Shown: in pieces, positions 3,185 through 32,100 of the stretch
Position numbering within the stretch: position 1 is the first letter of the stretch
Layout: each line of letters begins with the position of its first letter
Sequence record: PZ171032.1
Length of the DNA stretch: 64,000 nucleotides
DNA from: a phage
Reading direction: 5' to 3' (one strand)
Notes under the pieces: model-generated
Told to the model about the DNA's origin: nothing
The model's input: the letters and a program-made list of their open reading frames with translations, nothing else
Databases searched by the model: none
Position numbers and translations under genes: made by a program

Positions 3185-3502
3185 ATGCAAATTGAAATCA
3201 CTGGCAACGTAGAAATCACTGAAGGTATGGTGTCTTTCATTTCCCACAAAATGTCTAAGCTGGAGCGTTTGCACCCCTCTGCCAACTATGCACGTGTTAG
3301 TGTAAAAGTTGAAAATGATCACCAGGAAGTTATGGCGTTCATTTTTGACAATTCTGGAAAAGAAGTTATTGCCAAAGCTAAAGGCAGTGATGCTTACGAG
3401 GCAACTGACCGTATGGTAGATGTTGCAGCACGTCAGCTGGCTAAATGCGGTGGAAAGAAAGGTAAGGGGAAAGGCAAAGTAAAGATTGACTTTGGAGAAT
3501 GA
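3185..3502 (+). CDS. ribosome hibernation promoting factor / RaiA (YfiA) family homologue
   Basis: MQIEITGNVEITEGM...KLERL...ARVSVKVEN...GSDAYEATDRMVDVAARQLAK aligns along its length with bacterial HPF (MQLNITGNNVEITEAL...KLEQY...VYVVLKVEK...GQDMYAAIDGLIDKLARQLTK); lysine-rich C-terminal tail. Confidence 0.8.
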   Translation: MQIEITGNVEITEGMVSFISHKMSKLERLHPSANYARVSVKVENDHQEVMAFIFDNSGKEVIAKAKGSDAYEATDRMVDVAARQLAKCGGKKGKGKGKVKIDFGE

Positions 3503-11833: not shown

Positions 11834-12106
11834 TTACTTACGGCGGCAAAATTCAAGTGTTTTTAATTGATAATCTTCCTCAGCTTGGAGTACAACCGCC
11901 TCGATCATTTCGTTGGCATTGGTGAAGCCATACCCTTGAGCGAACTCATCCGCGCCACCTTCGTGATCATGTTCTGCGTTCATCGCTTCCACAAAATGGA
12001 ATTCAAGATTGTTGAGGTAAGGGCTTGATGTTCCGTCCTCTTTTTCGATGAGATCCCAGATAGCATTAAAACGTGATTCGACTTCTTGATTAATCCAGCT
12101 TGACAT
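11834..12106 (-). CDS. hypothetical acidic protein
   Basis: ORF with compact spacing; no motif. Confidence 0.6.
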   Translation of the reverse strand: MSSWINQEVESRFNAIWDLIEKEDGTSSPYLNNLEFHFVEAMNAEHDHEGGADEFAQGYGFTNANEMIEAVVLQAEEDYQLKTLEFCRRK

Positions 12107-12318
12107 AATGTTTTCCTCTCTTCTGGTTGTTGTGTGGGCACTTTTGCCCCTTCAAGATAAATGATACCCCCACCACCTGGCAGATGTCAACGGTTTTTAT
12201 AGTTTTTTATATAACAGGCACCCACGGTGATTGTCTCCCCCCGTCGCCAAGTGCCACCCGTGAGACAAGTATACCAAAAAACAGGACCATTGCAAGCCCT
12301 GTTTATAGTCTATAAGGA

Positions 12319-12510
12319 TTATATTTTTTCGCCTATGTAGTCCGGCCTATTCTTTTCGGTCATACGCTTAAGCATTTTTTGCATATGGCTTATAGCTTGT
12401 AATGTATCCTCTTCCAGGGATGAATCTAGATAATCAGGATCATTCTTCACCTTGCAATGATTATGATAACGCAGTACCGCCAGTACTTTTTTAACTTCTT
12501 CCGCTGTCAT
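12319..12510 (-). CDS. hypothetical protein
   Basis: ORF; no motif. Confidence 0.55.
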   Translation of the reverse strand: MTAEEVKKVLAVLRYHNHCKVKNDPDYLDSSLEEDTLQAISHMQKMLKRMTEKNRPDYIGEKI

Positions 12511-12518
12511 TATCGCGC

Positions 12519-12653
12519 CTAAAACAATGAGTTAATATATAACACCAGATCGCTGACTACCAGGACAACATTAATCAGCACATACCTAACCATAAAGGGA
12601 AAGATCGCCAACATTGCCGCCACGATCCCCATGGTAATAATTATCTTTCTCAT
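12519..12653 (-). CDS. tiny hydrophobic peptide (44 aa)
   Basis: ORF filling the gap before 12319-12510; TM-like IIITMGIVAAMLAIFPF and VLINVVLVV. Confidence 0.3.
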   Translation of the reverse strand: MRKIIITMGIVAAMLAIFPFMVRYVLINVVLVVSDLVLYINSLF

Positions 12654-12921
12654 GGTTAACGGTTCACGTAAGTTTTCCCGTTTACGGTTATCGGCAGATC
12701 CTCCAGGTCTGGATCTTCTTTAAGGTCGCGAGCAAGTTCACCGCACCGAACGCCCTCGAATCCGTAGTACTCTGTCGTGCCATCCTGGAAAGTTTTAGCG
12801 GCAAGGCATAGGCGATAAGTAACACCGATTTGATTGACGGCATGGATATCAGTTAGATCTACCTCTTTTGCCAGCTTTTTGGCGCTTACAGGGCCAACCA
12901 GGGGCGCTATTCGTAGGATAG

Positions 12922-12950
12922 AAATAAAAAGCCCCGCACAATGGCGGGGC
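12922..12950 (-). terminator. rho-independent terminator (minus strand)
   Basis: hairpin GCCCCGC-loop-GCGGGGC followed on the minus strand by TTTTTATTT; directly downstream of stop at 12959. Confidence 0.55.
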
Positions 12951-12958
12951 GTTGGTTG

Positions 12959-13156
12959 TTATTTGTCTTTATGGCGGTATCGTTCTGCCTGTCGTTCACG
13001 TTCCAAAAGTAGGCCGGGCAATTTACGATCATAATGGTTACGCCAGATCTTCCCAAACCTTTTTGGCTTATTCAGTTTATTGTTACGCTGGCGGCGTTCT
13101 GGCAGCTCTTCGGAATCATGAGGGCGCTTTACAATTTTCTCGAAATTAATTTTCAT
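12959..13156 (-). CDS. hypothetical highly basic small protein
   Basis: ATG at 13156 preceded by AAGGGGGG RBS (track start 13180 is upstream non-ATG); Arg/Lys-rich. Confidence 0.55.
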   Translation of the reverse strand: MKINFEKIVKRPHDSEELPERRQRNNKLNKPKRFGKIWRNHYDRKLPGLLLERERQAERYRHKDK

Positions 13157-13517
13157 ATATTCCCCCCTTACTGATCTCAATATTTGCCTGAATCGCCCGG
13201 ATACGGCGCTTTATAACTTCCTGATCTGTGTGGTCGTATCCCCAAAAGTCCACAATTTTTGCGCCCCCCGCCTCCAGGCGGTATAGTGTTTCCTGCATTT
13301 TGTAAGCCGGGATCGGTCGCGGTGTTACTTGGTCACCTTCTTTATTTTTATACTTTATAATATAATCTTCGTTATCGTTGAATGTCCAAAATGGATATTC
13401 TGCAAGGGCGGCACTTCCTCTTTCCTTTTTGTCCTGGATCTTATTTACAATTAAAGCCGTAGCAATAGCGCCAATAATAAAACTTGCCCCGCTGATCATG
13501 TTACTTTCTCCTTTCAT
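13146..13517 (-). CDS. hypothetical membrane-anchored protein
   Basis: N-terminal TM helix ISGASFIIGAIATALIV; AAGGAGA RBS. Confidence 0.6.
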   Translation of the reverse strand: MKGESNMISGASFIIGAIATALIVNKIQDKKERGSAALAEYPFWTFNDNEDYIIKYKNKEGDQVTPRPIPAYKMQETLYRLEAGGAKIVDFWGYDHTDQEVIKRRIRAIQANIEISKGGIYEN

Positions 13518-13575
13518 TGTGTTGATAAACTATCTTTATAGATGGCCCTGCTACCAGGACCACCGAAAAAACAGT

Positions 13576-13821
13576 TTATTTGACGATACCGACAAAACAG
13601 ATCCCGCCTTCCCCTATATAGGCAATATCGGTAATTTTATAATTTGTCAAGATCCGCGTGTTCAGCTCATTAATAAAATCGGTCATCGCGTTGGTGTAGT
13701 TGTCTTCCGTATCTAAGGCATAATCCCAGGTGTAAACCTTTTTACGTCCGAAGCCTTTTACCATGATACGGGCGCTTTTGGTGTTAGTAGGGGCATAATA
13801 CTTGGTGATTAGTGCTGCCAT
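13576..13821 (-). CDS. hypothetical protein
   Basis: AAGGAG RBS; downstream of conserved promoter element. Confidence 0.6.
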   Translation of the reverse strand: MAALITKYYAPTNTKSARIMVKGFGRKKVYTWDYALDTEDNYTNAMTDFINELNTRILTNYKITDIAYIGEGGICFVGIVK

Positions 13822-13862
13822 GGTTTTAACTCCTTTGCATTAGTTCAGTGTTAACAGTATAA

Positions 13863-13892
13863 AGTTTACTTTATTGATGGCCCTGGAGTCAA
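13863..13892 (-). promoter_or_regulatory. sigma70-type promoter within conserved repeat (TTGACT-N18-TAAACT), minus strand
   Basis: repeat element GATGGCC...GGCCATC-AATAAAG-TAAACT shared with the copy at 14484-14513; -35 sits in the loop of the inverted repeat. Confidence 0.5.
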
Positions 13893-13911
13893 GGCCATCT
13901 AAAAATAAATT

Positions 13912-14253
13912 TTACTCGTTTTCTTCCAGCTCTGAAAGCTCTTCTTTCACTTCTTCCAGCTCTGTCTGCAATTCCCGGTATTCTTCATCGTCCTCAATAT
14001 CCAGGCTGTCGATGTAGTCGCTAAATCCGCAGCGGTAAGCGATAGGATCTAACTCCTTGAGGATACGCGACGGAAGAAAAGAAATGTTTCCGATCATAAT
14101 TTCGCCGTAGATCTCGTCTAACCATTCATCATAGTTTTCGTCGTACTTGTCCTCGTCGATTTCAAAGTTATCGATCTTGTTCTCAAGGTCTGCGATCTGT
14201 TTTTTCAGCGCGGCGATCTGCATAGCTTTTTCTGCGGCGGTCATAGTAGTCAT
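13912..14253 (-). CDS. hypothetical acidic protein (coiled-coil-like composition)
   Basis: AAGGAGA RBS; highly charged composition. Confidence 0.6.
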   Translation of the reverse strand: MTTMTAAEKAMQIAALKKQIADLENKIDNFEIDEDKYDENYDEWLDEIYGEIMIGNISFLPSRILKELDPIAYRCGFSDYIDSLDIEDDEEYRELQTELEEVKEELSELEENE

Positions 14254-14304
14254 GGTGTTTTCTCCTTTTGTGTGTTCTGGGAAGTTTTCCCGTTTACGTG
14301 TCTA

Positions 14305-14332
14305 AGTATACCGATTTGGGTTAGCTTGTCAA
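14305..14332 (-). promoter_or_regulatory. sigma70-type promoter (TTGACA-N16-TATACT), minus strand
   Basis: hexamers read on minus strand upstream of gene starting at 14253; followed by short hairpin GGGAA-AAC-TTCCC in the leader. Confidence 0.45.
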
Positions 14333-14452
14333 TTAAAAATTTAAGAAAAATTTTGCGACACCGTTGGCGCTACCCATCAACATTTGCGCCAGGATGTACC
14401 CAATGATGCAAACGATGATGGTTACCTTTGTGTGCTGGCGTGTAGTGCTCAT
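14333..14452 (-). CDS. tiny hydrophobic peptide (39 aa)
   Basis: AAAGGAGG RBS then ATG; TM-like VTIIVCIIGYILAQMLM. Confidence 0.3.
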   Translation of the reverse strand: MSTTRQHTKVTIIVCIIGYILAQMLMGSANGVAKFFLNF

Positions 14453-14483
14453 CTTCAAGCCTCCTTTTAGCCTAACTGAGATT

Positions 14484-14513
14484 AGTTTACTTTATTGATG
14501 GCCCTGGTGTCAA
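14484..14513 (-). promoter_or_regulatory. sigma70-type promoter within conserved repeat (TTGACA-N18-TAAACT), minus strand
   Basis: second copy of the about 45-bp element seen at 13863-13892. Confidence 0.5.
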
Positions 14514-14531
14514 GGCCATCTAAAAATAAAC

Positions 14532-14927
14532 TCAATAAGTTTTTAGTACTTTCCCGTCCAATCTGTCAAGCTGGATCTCGATAGCTGCAGAAAACCTATT
14601 GTAAACCACATCACCCAGGGAGTCCAGCCAATCTATGACGTTATATACCTGCTCTTTATTCTTGCAAGTCCGGATCCGTTTCATTACGTAAGACGGATCA
14701 ATATTAGCGCTCTCGTTGTTGTGGTCCTGCGCATGGCCTGCTGCGCTAGTTATAGATTTTACAACCACCTGAAAGGGCTTTAAGGTGCCTTTTGCGTTCA
14801 TCTCACGCGCTTTTGCTGCGCGGTTGTTATATGTTACACAACGGCGGCAAATGTTGACCAAATGCATATCAATAATTTTTTCATCGTTTGCCAGTTCGTT
14901 CATGATGCGGCGTACGTTCTTATTCAT
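14532..14927 (-). CDS. hypothetical protein
   Basis: ORF downstream of promoter 14976-15003; no motif. Confidence 0.6.
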   Translation of the reverse strand: MNKNVRRIMNELANDEKIIDMHLVNICRRCVTYNNRAAKAREMNAKGTLKPFQVVVKSITSAAGHAQDHNNESANIDPSYVMKRIRTCKNKEQVYNVIDWLDSLGDVVYNRFSAAIEIQLDRLDGKVLKTY

Positions 14928-14975
14928 GATCTTTTTCCTTTGTGCTGGCGGGAAACATTCCCGCCTTTTGTGTCT

Positions 14976-15003
14976 AGTTTACTTAAATTTTGCAGCGTGT
15001 CAA
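14976..15003 (-). promoter_or_regulatory. sigma70-type promoter (TTGACA-N16-TAAACT) with leader hairpin, minus strand
   Basis: hexamers on minus strand; hairpin GGCGGGA-loop-TCCCGCC at about 14948-14966 lies in the leader. Confidence 0.45.
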
Positions 15004-15009
15004 TGATTT

Positions 15010-15408
15010 TTATTCGTGGGCGCATGTTACAATGTGTTTTTTATAGCCCAGGTGGTCAGCAAGTGCCGACAAAAACTCTTCTTCGTAGATCCAGCCGTCG
15101 GCAGTGATCCCCATAGCATTTAATGCGCTCTCAAGTGCTGCGTTAGCTTTATCGTAACCGTGACCGCTCGCCTTGCCGCCAGTATAACCGTACTTATTGT
15201 TCTTGTTGTCGTGAATCCAAAACACGCAGTAGTGAGTGTTCCCGCTGGCGGCGGCATAATACCGGATCTCAGCTACTTCGTGCAAATTATTGCCATCGTC
15301 CAGGCCAACCAGATTATAAGCCTTGTAGAATCCACGATCACGGCGGCAGTTCTTGACATCAGAAAAAGAAAAGTCCGCATTATCAAAATTAAAGGTAGTG
15401 GTTTTCAT
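15010..15408 (-). CDS. hypothetical protein
   Basis: ORF; no motif. Confidence 0.6.
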   Translation of the reverse strand: MKTTTFNFDNADFSFSDVKNCRRDRGFYKAYNLVGLDDGNNLHEVAEIRYYAAASGNTHYCVFWIHDNKNNKYGYTGGKASGHGYDKANAALESALNAMGITADGWIYEEEFLSALADHLGYKKHIVTCAHE

Positions 15409-15472
15409 GATTTTATCCTCTTAGTGTCTTTTGTGCTTTTAGTGTATTTGGTGTCGGACTATATGTCAATAC

Positions 15473-15670
15473 TTATTTTTTATTAAACCAGTGGTTGATC
15501 TGGCCTTTTGTCAGGGCGCAACGATTAAGCTGTTGCCGGGTATAGCTCTGACCGCGACGGAATTTATAAAGGCCTTGCCCGTTGTTGATGGTTACGTCCA
15601 CCTGGCAAACCATTTGATCGGTGACGGCCTGGCGAGTGTTGCGACGTACTTTAATTCCGTAGGCGTTCAT
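15473..15670 (-). CDS. hypothetical protein
   Basis: ORF; no motif. Confidence 0.5.
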   Translation of the reverse strand: MNAYGIKVRRNTRQAVTDQMVCQVDVTINNGQGLYKFRRGQSYTRQQLNRCALTKGQINHWFNKK

Positions 15671-15687
15671 GATTTTTATCCTCTCTG

Positions 15688-15930
15688 TTAATTAGTGTGG
15701 TGTTGTTCACCTTGCGAGGATAAGAATAACAGAACTATCCGAGCTGTCAACCATTGGTTAGAATTATTTTTTGGGCAGAATTCTCCAGCCGCCGCCCCTG
15801 CCAGGTTAACCATCATTTTTTCGTACTCTTCTTTATGTTCCAACGCTCCCGCCATAGCCTTTTCAACCAGGGTGATAGCCTCAGCGTCATTAATCGCTAC
15901 ATTTCCCAGGTGAGTAGCATTACCTTTCAT
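15688..15930 (-). CDS. hypothetical protein
   Basis: ORF; no motif. Confidence 0.55.
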   Translation of the reverse strand: MKGNATHLGNVAINDAEAITLVEKAMAGALEHKEEYEKMMVNLAGAAAGEFCPKNNSNQWLTARIVLLFLSSQGEQHHTN

Positions 15931-16087
15931 TTTTGCACCTCCTCTTCAATTGTTTACCCTACAGCATGGGCCTACCAGGTTTGCAAGATTTCACCCTCTC
16001 CCACCTGGTCAGTTAGGTCCTGCCAGGCTGGCCCCGCCAGGTTGCAACGGTTAGCGCATCAGGTTAGAAAAATTTTTTGAAAAGGTG

Positions 16088-16350: not shown

Positions 16351-16458
16351 ATGAGAACTCCTCGCATTTAATAAATTTAATTAGCACGCTAATTACCCTC
16401 CGTAACAATTTCCTATAAAATAGTATCCACTAAAATATTCCCATATAGAAATTTTAAA

Positions 16459-16633
16459 AATCCATTTCTGAAAACGAAAAATCGATTTCGTCCCCAAAAA
16501 TTTCAGGTCGAGAGCCGGAACGATTTCCAGAAAATCCGATTCAGAAAACGAAAAACAGATCGAGTACTGAGAAATTTATCGAGAAAAATTTTCAGAAAAT
16601 TCAATCTTTGAAACGAAAAACAGATCGAGTACT
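16459..16633. repeat. direct repeats GAAAACGAAAAA(C/T)(A)GATCGAGTACT (three copies, about 70-85 bp apart)
   Basis: 25-mer repeated almost exactly at about 16544 and 16610, partial copy at about 16459; additional AAATCCATTTT words nearby. Confidence 0.5.
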
Positions 16634-16943
16634 TGGAAAGCTGCGCCACAACTTCAAGGTAGTGGTTGGATTATTACTATAAAAGGTCAAGGGTAAGTGG
16701 GGGAAGTTCTAGTAGAAGGGTGTGAGCATGTGCGGGAAATCTGTAATGGTGGTCTGGAATATGGTGCAGACGATAGGATGAGTGGTTCATCTCGTCGTGC
16801 CTGCTCTGAAAAATCCATTTTAGTTTTCGATCCATTTTCTGATTTTCTAAGGATTTTAAAATATCCTGGTAGGTAAAATATCAAAAGGAGGAAATCCATT
16901 TTAGAAATCCTCCTGATCTCTGGCAACCTGATAACTTAAAATA

Positions 16944-20443: not shown

Positions 20444-20471
20444 AAAAATGCCCCACCCTTTCGGGCAGGGC
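20444..20471 (-). terminator. rho-independent terminator (GNRA-looped hairpin plus U-run), minus strand
   Basis: minus strand GCCCTGCCC-GAAA-GGGTGGGGC followed by ATTTTT; same element recurs at 32073-32100. Confidence 0.6.
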
Positions 20472-32072: not shown

Positions 32073-32100
32073 AAAAAGCCCCACCCTTTCGGGCAGGGCC
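32073..32100 (-). terminator. rho-independent terminator (second copy of GNRA-looped element), minus strand
   Basis: minus strand GGCCCTGCCC-GAAA-GGGTGGGGC followed by TTTTT; near-identical to 20444-20471. Confidence 0.6.

Follow-up and report, generated by a model that had tools for sequence, protein, structure and literature searches.

PeSLs, which were described in T4-like phages (RB49/phi1, PST, and nt-1), are intergenic elements that join a sigma70-like promoter to an A/T-rich upstream tract and a stem-loop, and in one of their five subclasses the stem-loop overlaps the -35 hexamer (Arbiol et al. 2010, PMC2839356; Comeau et al. 2014, PMC4122927). They are located upstream of ORFans in hyperplastic regions, where they mediate indels and replacements (PMC2839356, PMC4122927). 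Lambdoid linker or boundary sequences and morons, together with the theory of modular evolution, have been discussed alongside them (PMC2839356), and sigma70-type early promoters have been published or annotated for rV5 and other Vequintavirinae (Kropinski et al. 2013, PMC3606486; Buttimer et al. 2020, PMC7344957), with the early regions of Certrevirus harboring 13–21 copies of an extended UP + TGTTGAC + TATAAT motif (PMC7344957). Here, we analyzed a stretch of phage DNA of 64,000 nucleotides (sequence record PZ171032.1, hereafter the window), which is 91–97% identical to Vequintavirus (rV5-like) coliphage genomes such as EdH4, Gotham, rV5, and Mangalyan. Its minus-strand early block of small genes, corresponding to rV5 ORFs 190–195, contains a short repeated intergenic cassette, for which the original prediction had proposed a promoter with an embedded operator. 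We found that the cassettes are, as far as their sequence tells, hairpin-bearing promoter units at the edges of mobile early-gene blocks, which is a more informative result than an operator. They probably represent a composite, PeSL-type intergenic cassette of a Vequintavirus, in which promoter, stem-loop, and recombination patch are combined.

The resemblance to PeSLs extends over several features, since a stop codon in an A/T-rich tract, sigma70-like -35 and -10 hexamers, a stem-loop, and a Shine–Dalgarno (SD) sequence with the start of an ORFan are all present, the cassette is repeated in a plastic, ORFan-rich early region, and indels and replacements in relatives end in cassettes. It differs from PeSLs, however, in being found in Vequintavirinae instead of T4-like phages and in showing no sequence homology to them, in having a stem of GATGGCC/GGCCATC instead of polyG/polyC, in lacking a U-tract after the stem, and in taking part in one exchange that crosses subfamily boundaries. 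Moreover, terminator, promoter, and mini-circle activities are known for PeSLs, whereas promoter and hairpin activities of the present cassette are predicted. The cassette is thus best described as a putative analogue, and not a homologue, of the PeSLs in another phage group.

A repeat search of the window grouped three sequences into one family, namely 13863–13922 (copy C) and 14484–14543 (copy B), which are 88% identical over 60 nt, and the degenerate 13528–13587 (copy D), which is 60% identical; a further good copy, designated A, was found in relatives only. The pattern GATGGCC-N10-GGCCATC, with up to two mismatches allowed, was matched three times as compared with 0.07 expected matches, and none of 100 shuffles reached three. 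The originally predicted pair of near-identical copies with a degenerate third was therefore borne out, whereas the proposed unit length of about 45 bp proved too short, the conserved unit covering approximately 50–60 nt, with the stop codon of the preceding gene at one end and the -10 at the other. In minus-strand orientation, B and C are composed of a stop codon, TTTATTTTTA, GATGGCC, TTGAC(A/T)CCA, GGGCCATC, AATAAAG, and TAAACT, and the A/T-rich tract ahead of the stem adjoins the upstream stop codon (TAA-AATTTATTTTTA and TGA-GTTTATTTTTA). The order common to all copies is a stop codon, a U-rich tract of 11–12 nt, a 10-bp hairpin, and (A/T)ATAAAG, to which B and C add TTGAC(A/T), an 18-nt spacer, and TAAACT, followed downstream by AAGGAG and an ATG, with the -10 placed 27–32 nt upstream of the SD. 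The third copy had been expected to comprise the same parts, which holds for the hairpin and TATAAAG but not for the promoter hexamers, as neither TTGAC nor TAAACT is found in register in D.

The inverted repeat was then evaluated as RNA and as DNA. The sense RNAs of B, C, and D all fold with the same energy of -17.8 kcal/mol into a stem of 10 bp and a loop of 4 nt (z -5.0 to -6.2; C -5.3 and B -6.2), whereas the opposite strand is weaker (-13.6 kcal/mol for B and C and -7.7 kcal/mol for D). In this fold, the -35 hexamer is located only partly in the loop, as had been claimed for the whole of it, since AC(A/T) occupies the loop and TTG belongs to the stem. Copy D is distinguished from B and C by three left-arm changes (A-U to G.U, C-G to U.G, and U.G to C-G) that leave an equal fold, and by the loop GUAG in place of ACUC, which eliminates the -35. 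The 34 instances collected from 14 loci comprise 11 distinct hairpins, in which the stems never vary within a class and the loops do. In an alignment of the 15 distinct variants, standard pairing on the sense strand, with G.U where needed, holds for all 149 of 149 stem cells, whereas reading the other strand, or assuming DNA dyad symmetry, would turn 21 of them into C.A mismatches; five of the ten pairs vary, on one side only and always to the wobble partner. Among the copy D orthologues, the stem is invariant in five distinct variants (0/20 variable positions vs. 10/34 outside the stem; Fisher p=0.009), and the distance from stop codon to stem was 10–12 nt in every copy, including that of a distant contig described below. 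The fold and its strand-specific conservation are direct observations, and the pattern is in keeping with a sense-strand stem-loop that is under selection where the preceding cistron ends, although it falls short of full covariation proof.

These data bear directly on the shared operator that had been proposed, in which a dimeric phage or host protein would bind GATGGCC-N10-GGCCATC around the -35 and switch three promoters together. Copies A, B, and C have perfect 7-bp arms on either side of the -35, and the arm sequence itself is conserved beyond pairing in 121 records and in the distant contig, although the right-arm conservation in the latter is an ascertainment effect of the search pattern. 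The 10-bp pairing, however, exists on the sense strand only, by way of a T.G pair, and the left arm of D differs at two of seven half-site positions by changes to wobble partners that are conserved and compatible with pairing on one strand only, in a copy with no promoter to regulate. Additionally, no DNA-binding protein was evident among the neighboring ORFans in PHROGs and Pfam searches. The strand-specific fold, the G.U-only stem changes, and the retention of the D stem without a -35 argue against an operator and for an RNA stem-loop laid over a promoter. A dyad-symmetric DNA operator is thus a poor fit that the data do not support, and we consider it distinctly unlikely; a view limited to an operator would also miss that the cassette bounds gene-block indels and exchanges. 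As a separate observation, copy B of Gotham (MT682716; positions 3391–3436 of locus L002) has no right-arm GGGCC (GATGGCCTTGACTCCA-ATCAATAAAG), so that the hairpin is destroyed and the -35/-10 spacer is 13 nt, which reflects a knockout of natural origin or, alternatively, compression during sequencing of the hairpin. A search against Rfam 15 returned nothing at the cassettes, the only match in 12000–16000 being isrJ at 12928–12990, below the gathering score (E = 0.7).

With regard to the promoter, a promoter scan recovered TTGACA-18-TAAACT in cassette B (10/12; 14513–14484) and TTGACT-18-TAAACT in cassette C (9/12; 13892–13863), and exactly these 30 nt are annotated in the Gotham GenBank record as a promoter predicted by PhagePromoter. 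The upstream tract AAATTTATTTT resembles the distal subsite of the UP element (Estrem/Gourse consensus). Loop positions 1–2, which comprise the AC of TTGAC, were invariant in 22 of 23 instances of A, B, and C while positions 3–4 vary, and in the promoter-less copy D three of four loop positions vary. The corresponding site of phi92-like phages exhibits an identical -10 region, AATAAAGTAAACT, behind a TTGCAA -35 at 16 nt and with no hairpin. The gene block as a whole is a dense array of sigma70-like promoters, in which almost every gene has a TTGACA directly after the preceding stop codon. The two further promoters that had been pointed out in this block were both found by the scan and correspond to the published rV5 P192 and P194, and leader hairpins were likewise detected after each of them, the first being weak (Table 1). 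The conserved promoter-like units claimed for the region directly upstream of the minus-strand early genes were thus confirmed as repeated, conserved sequence. The cassettes share the gene block and the TTGACA / TA..CT hexamers with the rV5 promoters, but differ from them in that the rV5 lists required N15–17 spacers and 10/12 matches, and GGCCATC is not in the table (PMC3606486); no stem-loop or recombination role was described in the rV5 and Vequintavirinae papers (PMC3606486, PMC7344957). Cassettes B and C are, accordingly to their hexamers and position, plausible but unproven sigma70-type promoters.

An explanation by the hairpin alone would hold that the element is an RNA stem-loop after the stop codon, acting in 3'-end protection, processing, or pausing, and that its resemblance to a promoter is incidental or vestigial. 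Copy D and the distant contig, in which the hairpin and (A/T)ATAAAG are retained at an unchanged spacing from the stop codon with no -35, speak for it, as do the frequency of comparable hexamer matches by chance and the suboptimal spacer. It does not account for the invariance of TTGAC at loop positions that are free in D, nor for the identical -10 region that phi92-like phages combine with another -35 and no hairpin, and each of the other genes of the block is equipped with a promoter of its own immediately behind the preceding stop codon. We therefore regard this explanation as unlikely and retain the overlap of promoter and stem-loop as the preferred reading. As a side observation, the leader CGTAAACGGGAAAACTT that follows the P192-type promoter (14274–14298) has an 88%-identical paralogue at 12662–12686, ahead of a 44-aa gene (12519–12653), which shows no recognizable promoter and has another pairing partner.

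The position of the hairpin, a G+C-rich 10-bp stem 10–12 nt after a stop codon, also calls for comparison with an ordinary rho-independent terminator of the upstream gene that would overlap the next promoter by chance. A G+C-rich hairpin as in such terminators is present, but what comes after the stem is AAUAAAGU, the U-rich tract being on its upstream side instead, so that the hairpin is not a canonical intrinsic terminator; neither the terminator scan, the EdH4 annotation, nor the rV5 list reported it. Furthermore, since the 117-aa gene downstream of D has no convincing promoter of its own, hairpin D presumably must be read through for its expression. In the same early region, a hairpin unrelated in sequence to the cassettes (AAACAGGGC-TTGCAA-TGGTCCTGTTT; 12279–12304, minus strand, within 12268–12304) carries a -35-like hexamer in its loop, with TTTT and an extended -10 (TGGTATACT) downstream, and is called only a terminator in the EdH4 annotation. 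This overlap of terminator and promoter at 12268–12304 shows that the same architecture recurs in this phage. Even with that precedent, which does possess a T-tract, we consider a terminator at the cassettes very improbable, and the role that we infer for the hairpin is that of a boundary, attenuating, or 3'-protecting element. REP/BIME sequences of E. coli are repeated, G+C-rich, transcribed palindromes after stop codons, and REP shields upstream mRNA from 3' exonucleases without termination. The phage element differs from them in that it is overlaid on a promoter and has no match in 5,426 E. coli genomes. Other candidates were rejected, namely an RNase III site, for which the 10-bp stem is too short, an attC-like site or MITE, as the copies are arranged as direct repeats and show neither an R-box nor TIR/TSD anatomy, and an antisense promoter or terminator, as the plus strand is without usable hexamers or a U-tract.

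Regarding gene-block loss, the equivalent points of C and B delimit a 621-bp block, whose exact register can be set anywhere in the ~47 nt that the two share. At least three isolates, namely magaca, phiWec189, and ECP26, as well as the IMG/VR contig 2051223002_000007 (L100), lack this block and have one hybrid cassette in its place, which joins a B-type upstream flank to a C-type downstream flank. The flanks are of EdH4 type in magaca and of rV5 type in phiWec189 and ECP26, and these two backgrounds suggest at least two independent deletion events. The block interior was found in 116 records as compared with 121 for the cassette.

Exchange was observed over a 475-nt block that includes a promoter, a gene, and a cassette and was acquired by KKE7M, a phage of the Stephanstirmvirinae (Justusliebigvirus, phi92-like); at that site, its relatives PD114 and Paula instead carry a 71-aa gene (phi92_gp234-like) that is not homologous. 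In a three-way alignment, the crossovers fall in TTGACAAGATAACTAAAATC on the left and in AATAAAGTAAA on the right, and both are predicted promoter sequences common to the two subfamilies. On this alignment, the KKE7M event is a recent non-homologous gene replacement between conserved, putative promoter linkers. Gene conversion is hinted at by the loops, for in rV5, Gotham, and one metagenomic genome the paralogous copies A and C agree in their loop variant, whereas orthologues from different genomes do not, the sample being small. The proteins downstream of A and C are not homologous. Gene duplication as the source of the repeat was rejected on account of these unrelated flanking proteins, which indicates that the repeat is a regulatory cassette and not a by-product of gene duplication.

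The association of cassettes with these junctions is observed, and the recombination mechanism is what we infer from it. Lambdoid linkers are comparable in that short conserved intergenic sequences accompany the exchange of non-homologous genes in units with their own expression signals, but here the linkers would themselves be promoters and hairpins, in a strictly lytic 137-kb myovirus, and moron insertion is by definition independent of conserved flanks (PMC2839356). Functionless remnants of a recent segmental duplication might also produce clustered copies, which do lie within ~4.5 kb, with B and C nearly identical. Such neutrality is scarcely credible, however, as the genes flanking different copies are unrelated, the variation in copy D avoids the stem, and the core is 92–100% identical across 121 records whose flanks differ by 5–15%.

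Two other deletions were found in the region. Compared with EdH4, rV5, and Gotham, the window is without ~5.2 kb (EdH4 locus L001 2396–7652) comprising ~15 small genes and copy A; the junction at 12875–12892 is an 18-nt short homology (CCTGTAA..GC.AAAGAG) within coding sequence, and the gap removes the N-terminal part of a small gene, leaving the truncated ORF 12688–12843. In rV5_ev146 (LR699804; L004 5470–5479), a deletion of ~500 nt has eliminated the 131-aa gene and cassette B, and these early genes are therefore dispensable under its propagation conditions. The single copy of rV5_ev146 had been a candidate for a cassette-to-cassette deletion, which was refuted, as the joint connects short CCAGCACA(CA)AAGG repeats at window positions 14941 and 14440.

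The distribution of the cassette was assessed by BLAST against 50,697 phage records, in which the 65-nt unit occurs in the 121 records mentioned above, usually in three places each, all of them Vequintavirus records except the phi92-like KKE7M. Whereas the window has three copies, relatives have three that BLAST detects and four when degenerate D is counted. Chance matches overwhelmed a scan of IMG/VR with a 15-mer (GGGCCATCWATAAAG), only 4 of 120 loci being real (L056, L073, L100, and L101), and a more specific 25-nt pattern returned two rV5-like contigs only, so that GenBank phages were used instead. The distant contig is L073 (IMGVR_UViG_3300045988_163358), 136 kb in length, which has one gene, ~68% identical, in common with rV5-like phages in the 2.7 kb of the contig examined. 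Its positions 1860–1880 read GATGGCCC-UGGCG-GGGCCAUC and then AATAAAG, or GATGGCCC-TGGCG-GGGCCATC-AATAAAG in DNA letters, 11 nt after a stop codon and with no TTGAC.

Together, these observations can be accommodated in a composite cassette that would act at three levels. At the DNA level, a host sigma70-type early promoter, made up of the A/T-rich UP-like tract, TTGAC(A/T), the 18-nt spacer with AATAAAG at its end, and TAAACT, would start the next small gene. At the RNA level, transcripts from an upstream promoter would fold the G+C-rich hairpin behind the stop codon, which would then become a transcript-boundary element, either as a pause or attenuator or as a stem protecting the 3' end. At the genome level, the repeated copies and the adjacent conserved promoters would offer short homology patches, at which recombination may delete, convert, and exchange gene blocks together with their own expression signals, both within the genus and with phi92-like phages.

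Several points weigh against this composite reading. Hexamer matches of 9–10/12 are common by chance (48 found vs. 27.8 expected in 13 kb), and the cassette -10 matches at only 4/6 positions behind a suboptimal 18-nt spacer, as in a mediocre sigma70 promoter; the hexamers being weak by themselves, the promoter call rests as much on position and conservation. The cassette is not included in the stringent promoter and terminator lists of the rV5 authors, and no transcription start or 3'-end data for any Vequintavirus were found in the literature searched, so that promoter and hairpin functions are predictions. For the hairpin, no double-sided compensatory change was seen in the 15 variants, the covariation shuffle control is uninformative since the right arm never varies, and the absence of a U-tract after the stem makes a PeSL-like terminator activity doubtful. 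There are three to four copies per genome here, as compared with ~50 in RB49/phi1. Finally, the rV5_ev146 and 5.2-kb deletions use short homology unrelated to the cassettes, which are thus not the sole joints.

A more far-reaching proposal is that the invariant GATGGCC...GGGCCATC(A/T)ATAAAG core is a single-stranded DNA or RNA recognition site for a phage factor that drives cassette exchange or coordinates the genes, which would amount to an integron-like gene-cassette system of strictly lytic phages across Vequintavirinae and Stephanstirmvirinae. We consider this highly speculative and improbable; the alternative is that the patches of homology are passive. The composite cassette has consequences of its own, given that rV5-like and phi92-like coliphages are widely isolated, are present in therapy and biocontrol collections, and have early regions full of isolate-variable genes of unknown function. 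A source of this variability is suggested by the ~50-nt promoter/hairpin units that edge a two-gene block present in some genomes and absent from others, and by the near-identical promoters in which a recent gene replacement between two subfamilies had its crossovers. The PeSL idea, documented so far only in T4-like phages, would thereby be extended to a second large group of myoviruses, possibly providing a rule for where early genes can enter or leave engineered phages, and the cassette yields concrete constructs bearing on the regulatory role of a stem-loop that overlaps the -35.

Table 1. Positions of the cassettes, promoters, leader hairpins, exchanged blocks, and neighboring genes in the window
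Feature	Position	Strand	Description
Cassette C	13863..13914	-	stop TAA 13912-13914 of 113-aa gene; U-rich/UP-like tract 13900-13911; hairpin 13876-13899
Cassette C, putative promoter parts		-	-35 TTGACT 13887-13892; AATAAAG 13869-13875; -10 TAAACT 13863-13868
Cassette B	14484..14534	-	stop TGA 14532-14534 of 131-aa gene; U-rich tract 14521-14531; hairpin 14497-14520
Cassette B, putative promoter parts		-	-35 TTGACA 14508-14513; AATAAAG 14490-14496; -10 TAAACT 14484-14489
Cassette D	13534..13578	-	stop TAA 13576-13578 of 81-aa gene; U-rich tract 13565-13575; TATAAAG 13534-13540
Cassette D hairpin	13541-13564	-	GGTGGTCCTG-GTAG-CAGGGCCATC
P192-type promoter	14305..14332	-	TTGACA-16-TATACT, 11/12; left crossover zone of KKE7M exchange
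P194-type promoter	14976..15003	-	TTGACA-16-TAAACT, 10/12; AAGTAAACT in common with cassettes
Leader hairpin GGGAAAACTTCCC	14279..14291	-	after P192-type promoter; weak, -4 to -5.5 kcal/mol
Leader hairpin GGCGGGAATGTTTCCCGCC	14947..14965	-	after P194-type promoter; -14.6 kcal/mol; "terminator" in EdH4 record
621-bp block, equivalent points of C to B	13876..14496	-	39-aa gene, P192-type promoter and leader, 113-aa gene
475-nt block	13859..14333	-	96.6% identical to KKE7M; from P192-type -35 to just past cassette C -10
117-aa ORFan	13146..13499	-	downstream of cassette D; SD 13508-13513; no convincing promoter of its own
81-aa ORFan	13576..13821	-	downstream of cassette C; SD AAGGAG 13830-13835; PHROG of unknown function, no Pfam
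113-aa acidic coiled-coil-like ORFan, rV5 ORF192 homologue	13912..14253	-	gene within exchanged block
39-aa ORFan	14333..14452	-	downstream of cassette B; SD AAGGAG 14461-14466; ATG 14450-14452
131-aa ORFan	14532..14927	-	cassette B begins at its stop codon

The six neighboring proteins all belong to PHROGs of unknown function, and no Pfam domain was detected in them by the PHROGs and Pfam search. The repeat_region in the annotation of phage isim falls within the 113-aa gene and has no relation to the cassettes. Further repeats were noted elsewhere in the window. Three direct repeats of ~57 nt (63–79% identical, spaced by 65–74 nt) extend over 16444–16639, where no convincing genes were found, and are adjoined by a 16-bp A/U-rich hairpin at 16464–16501; they may correspond to the "non-coding" box of the rV5 map and may represent an origin, iterons, or a small RNA. 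A canonical terminator hairpin of 27 nt (GCCCTGCCCGAAAGGGTGGGGC followed by a T-run) occurs twice, at 20445–20471 and 32073–32099, the two being 96% identical and 11.6 kb apart, and is a further regulatory element present in repeated form. Finally, two pairs of direct repeats in the late region (59111–59173/61169–61231 and 59612–59641/61685–61714) are 83% identical at a spacing of ~2.06 kb, which suggests tandem paralogous genes.

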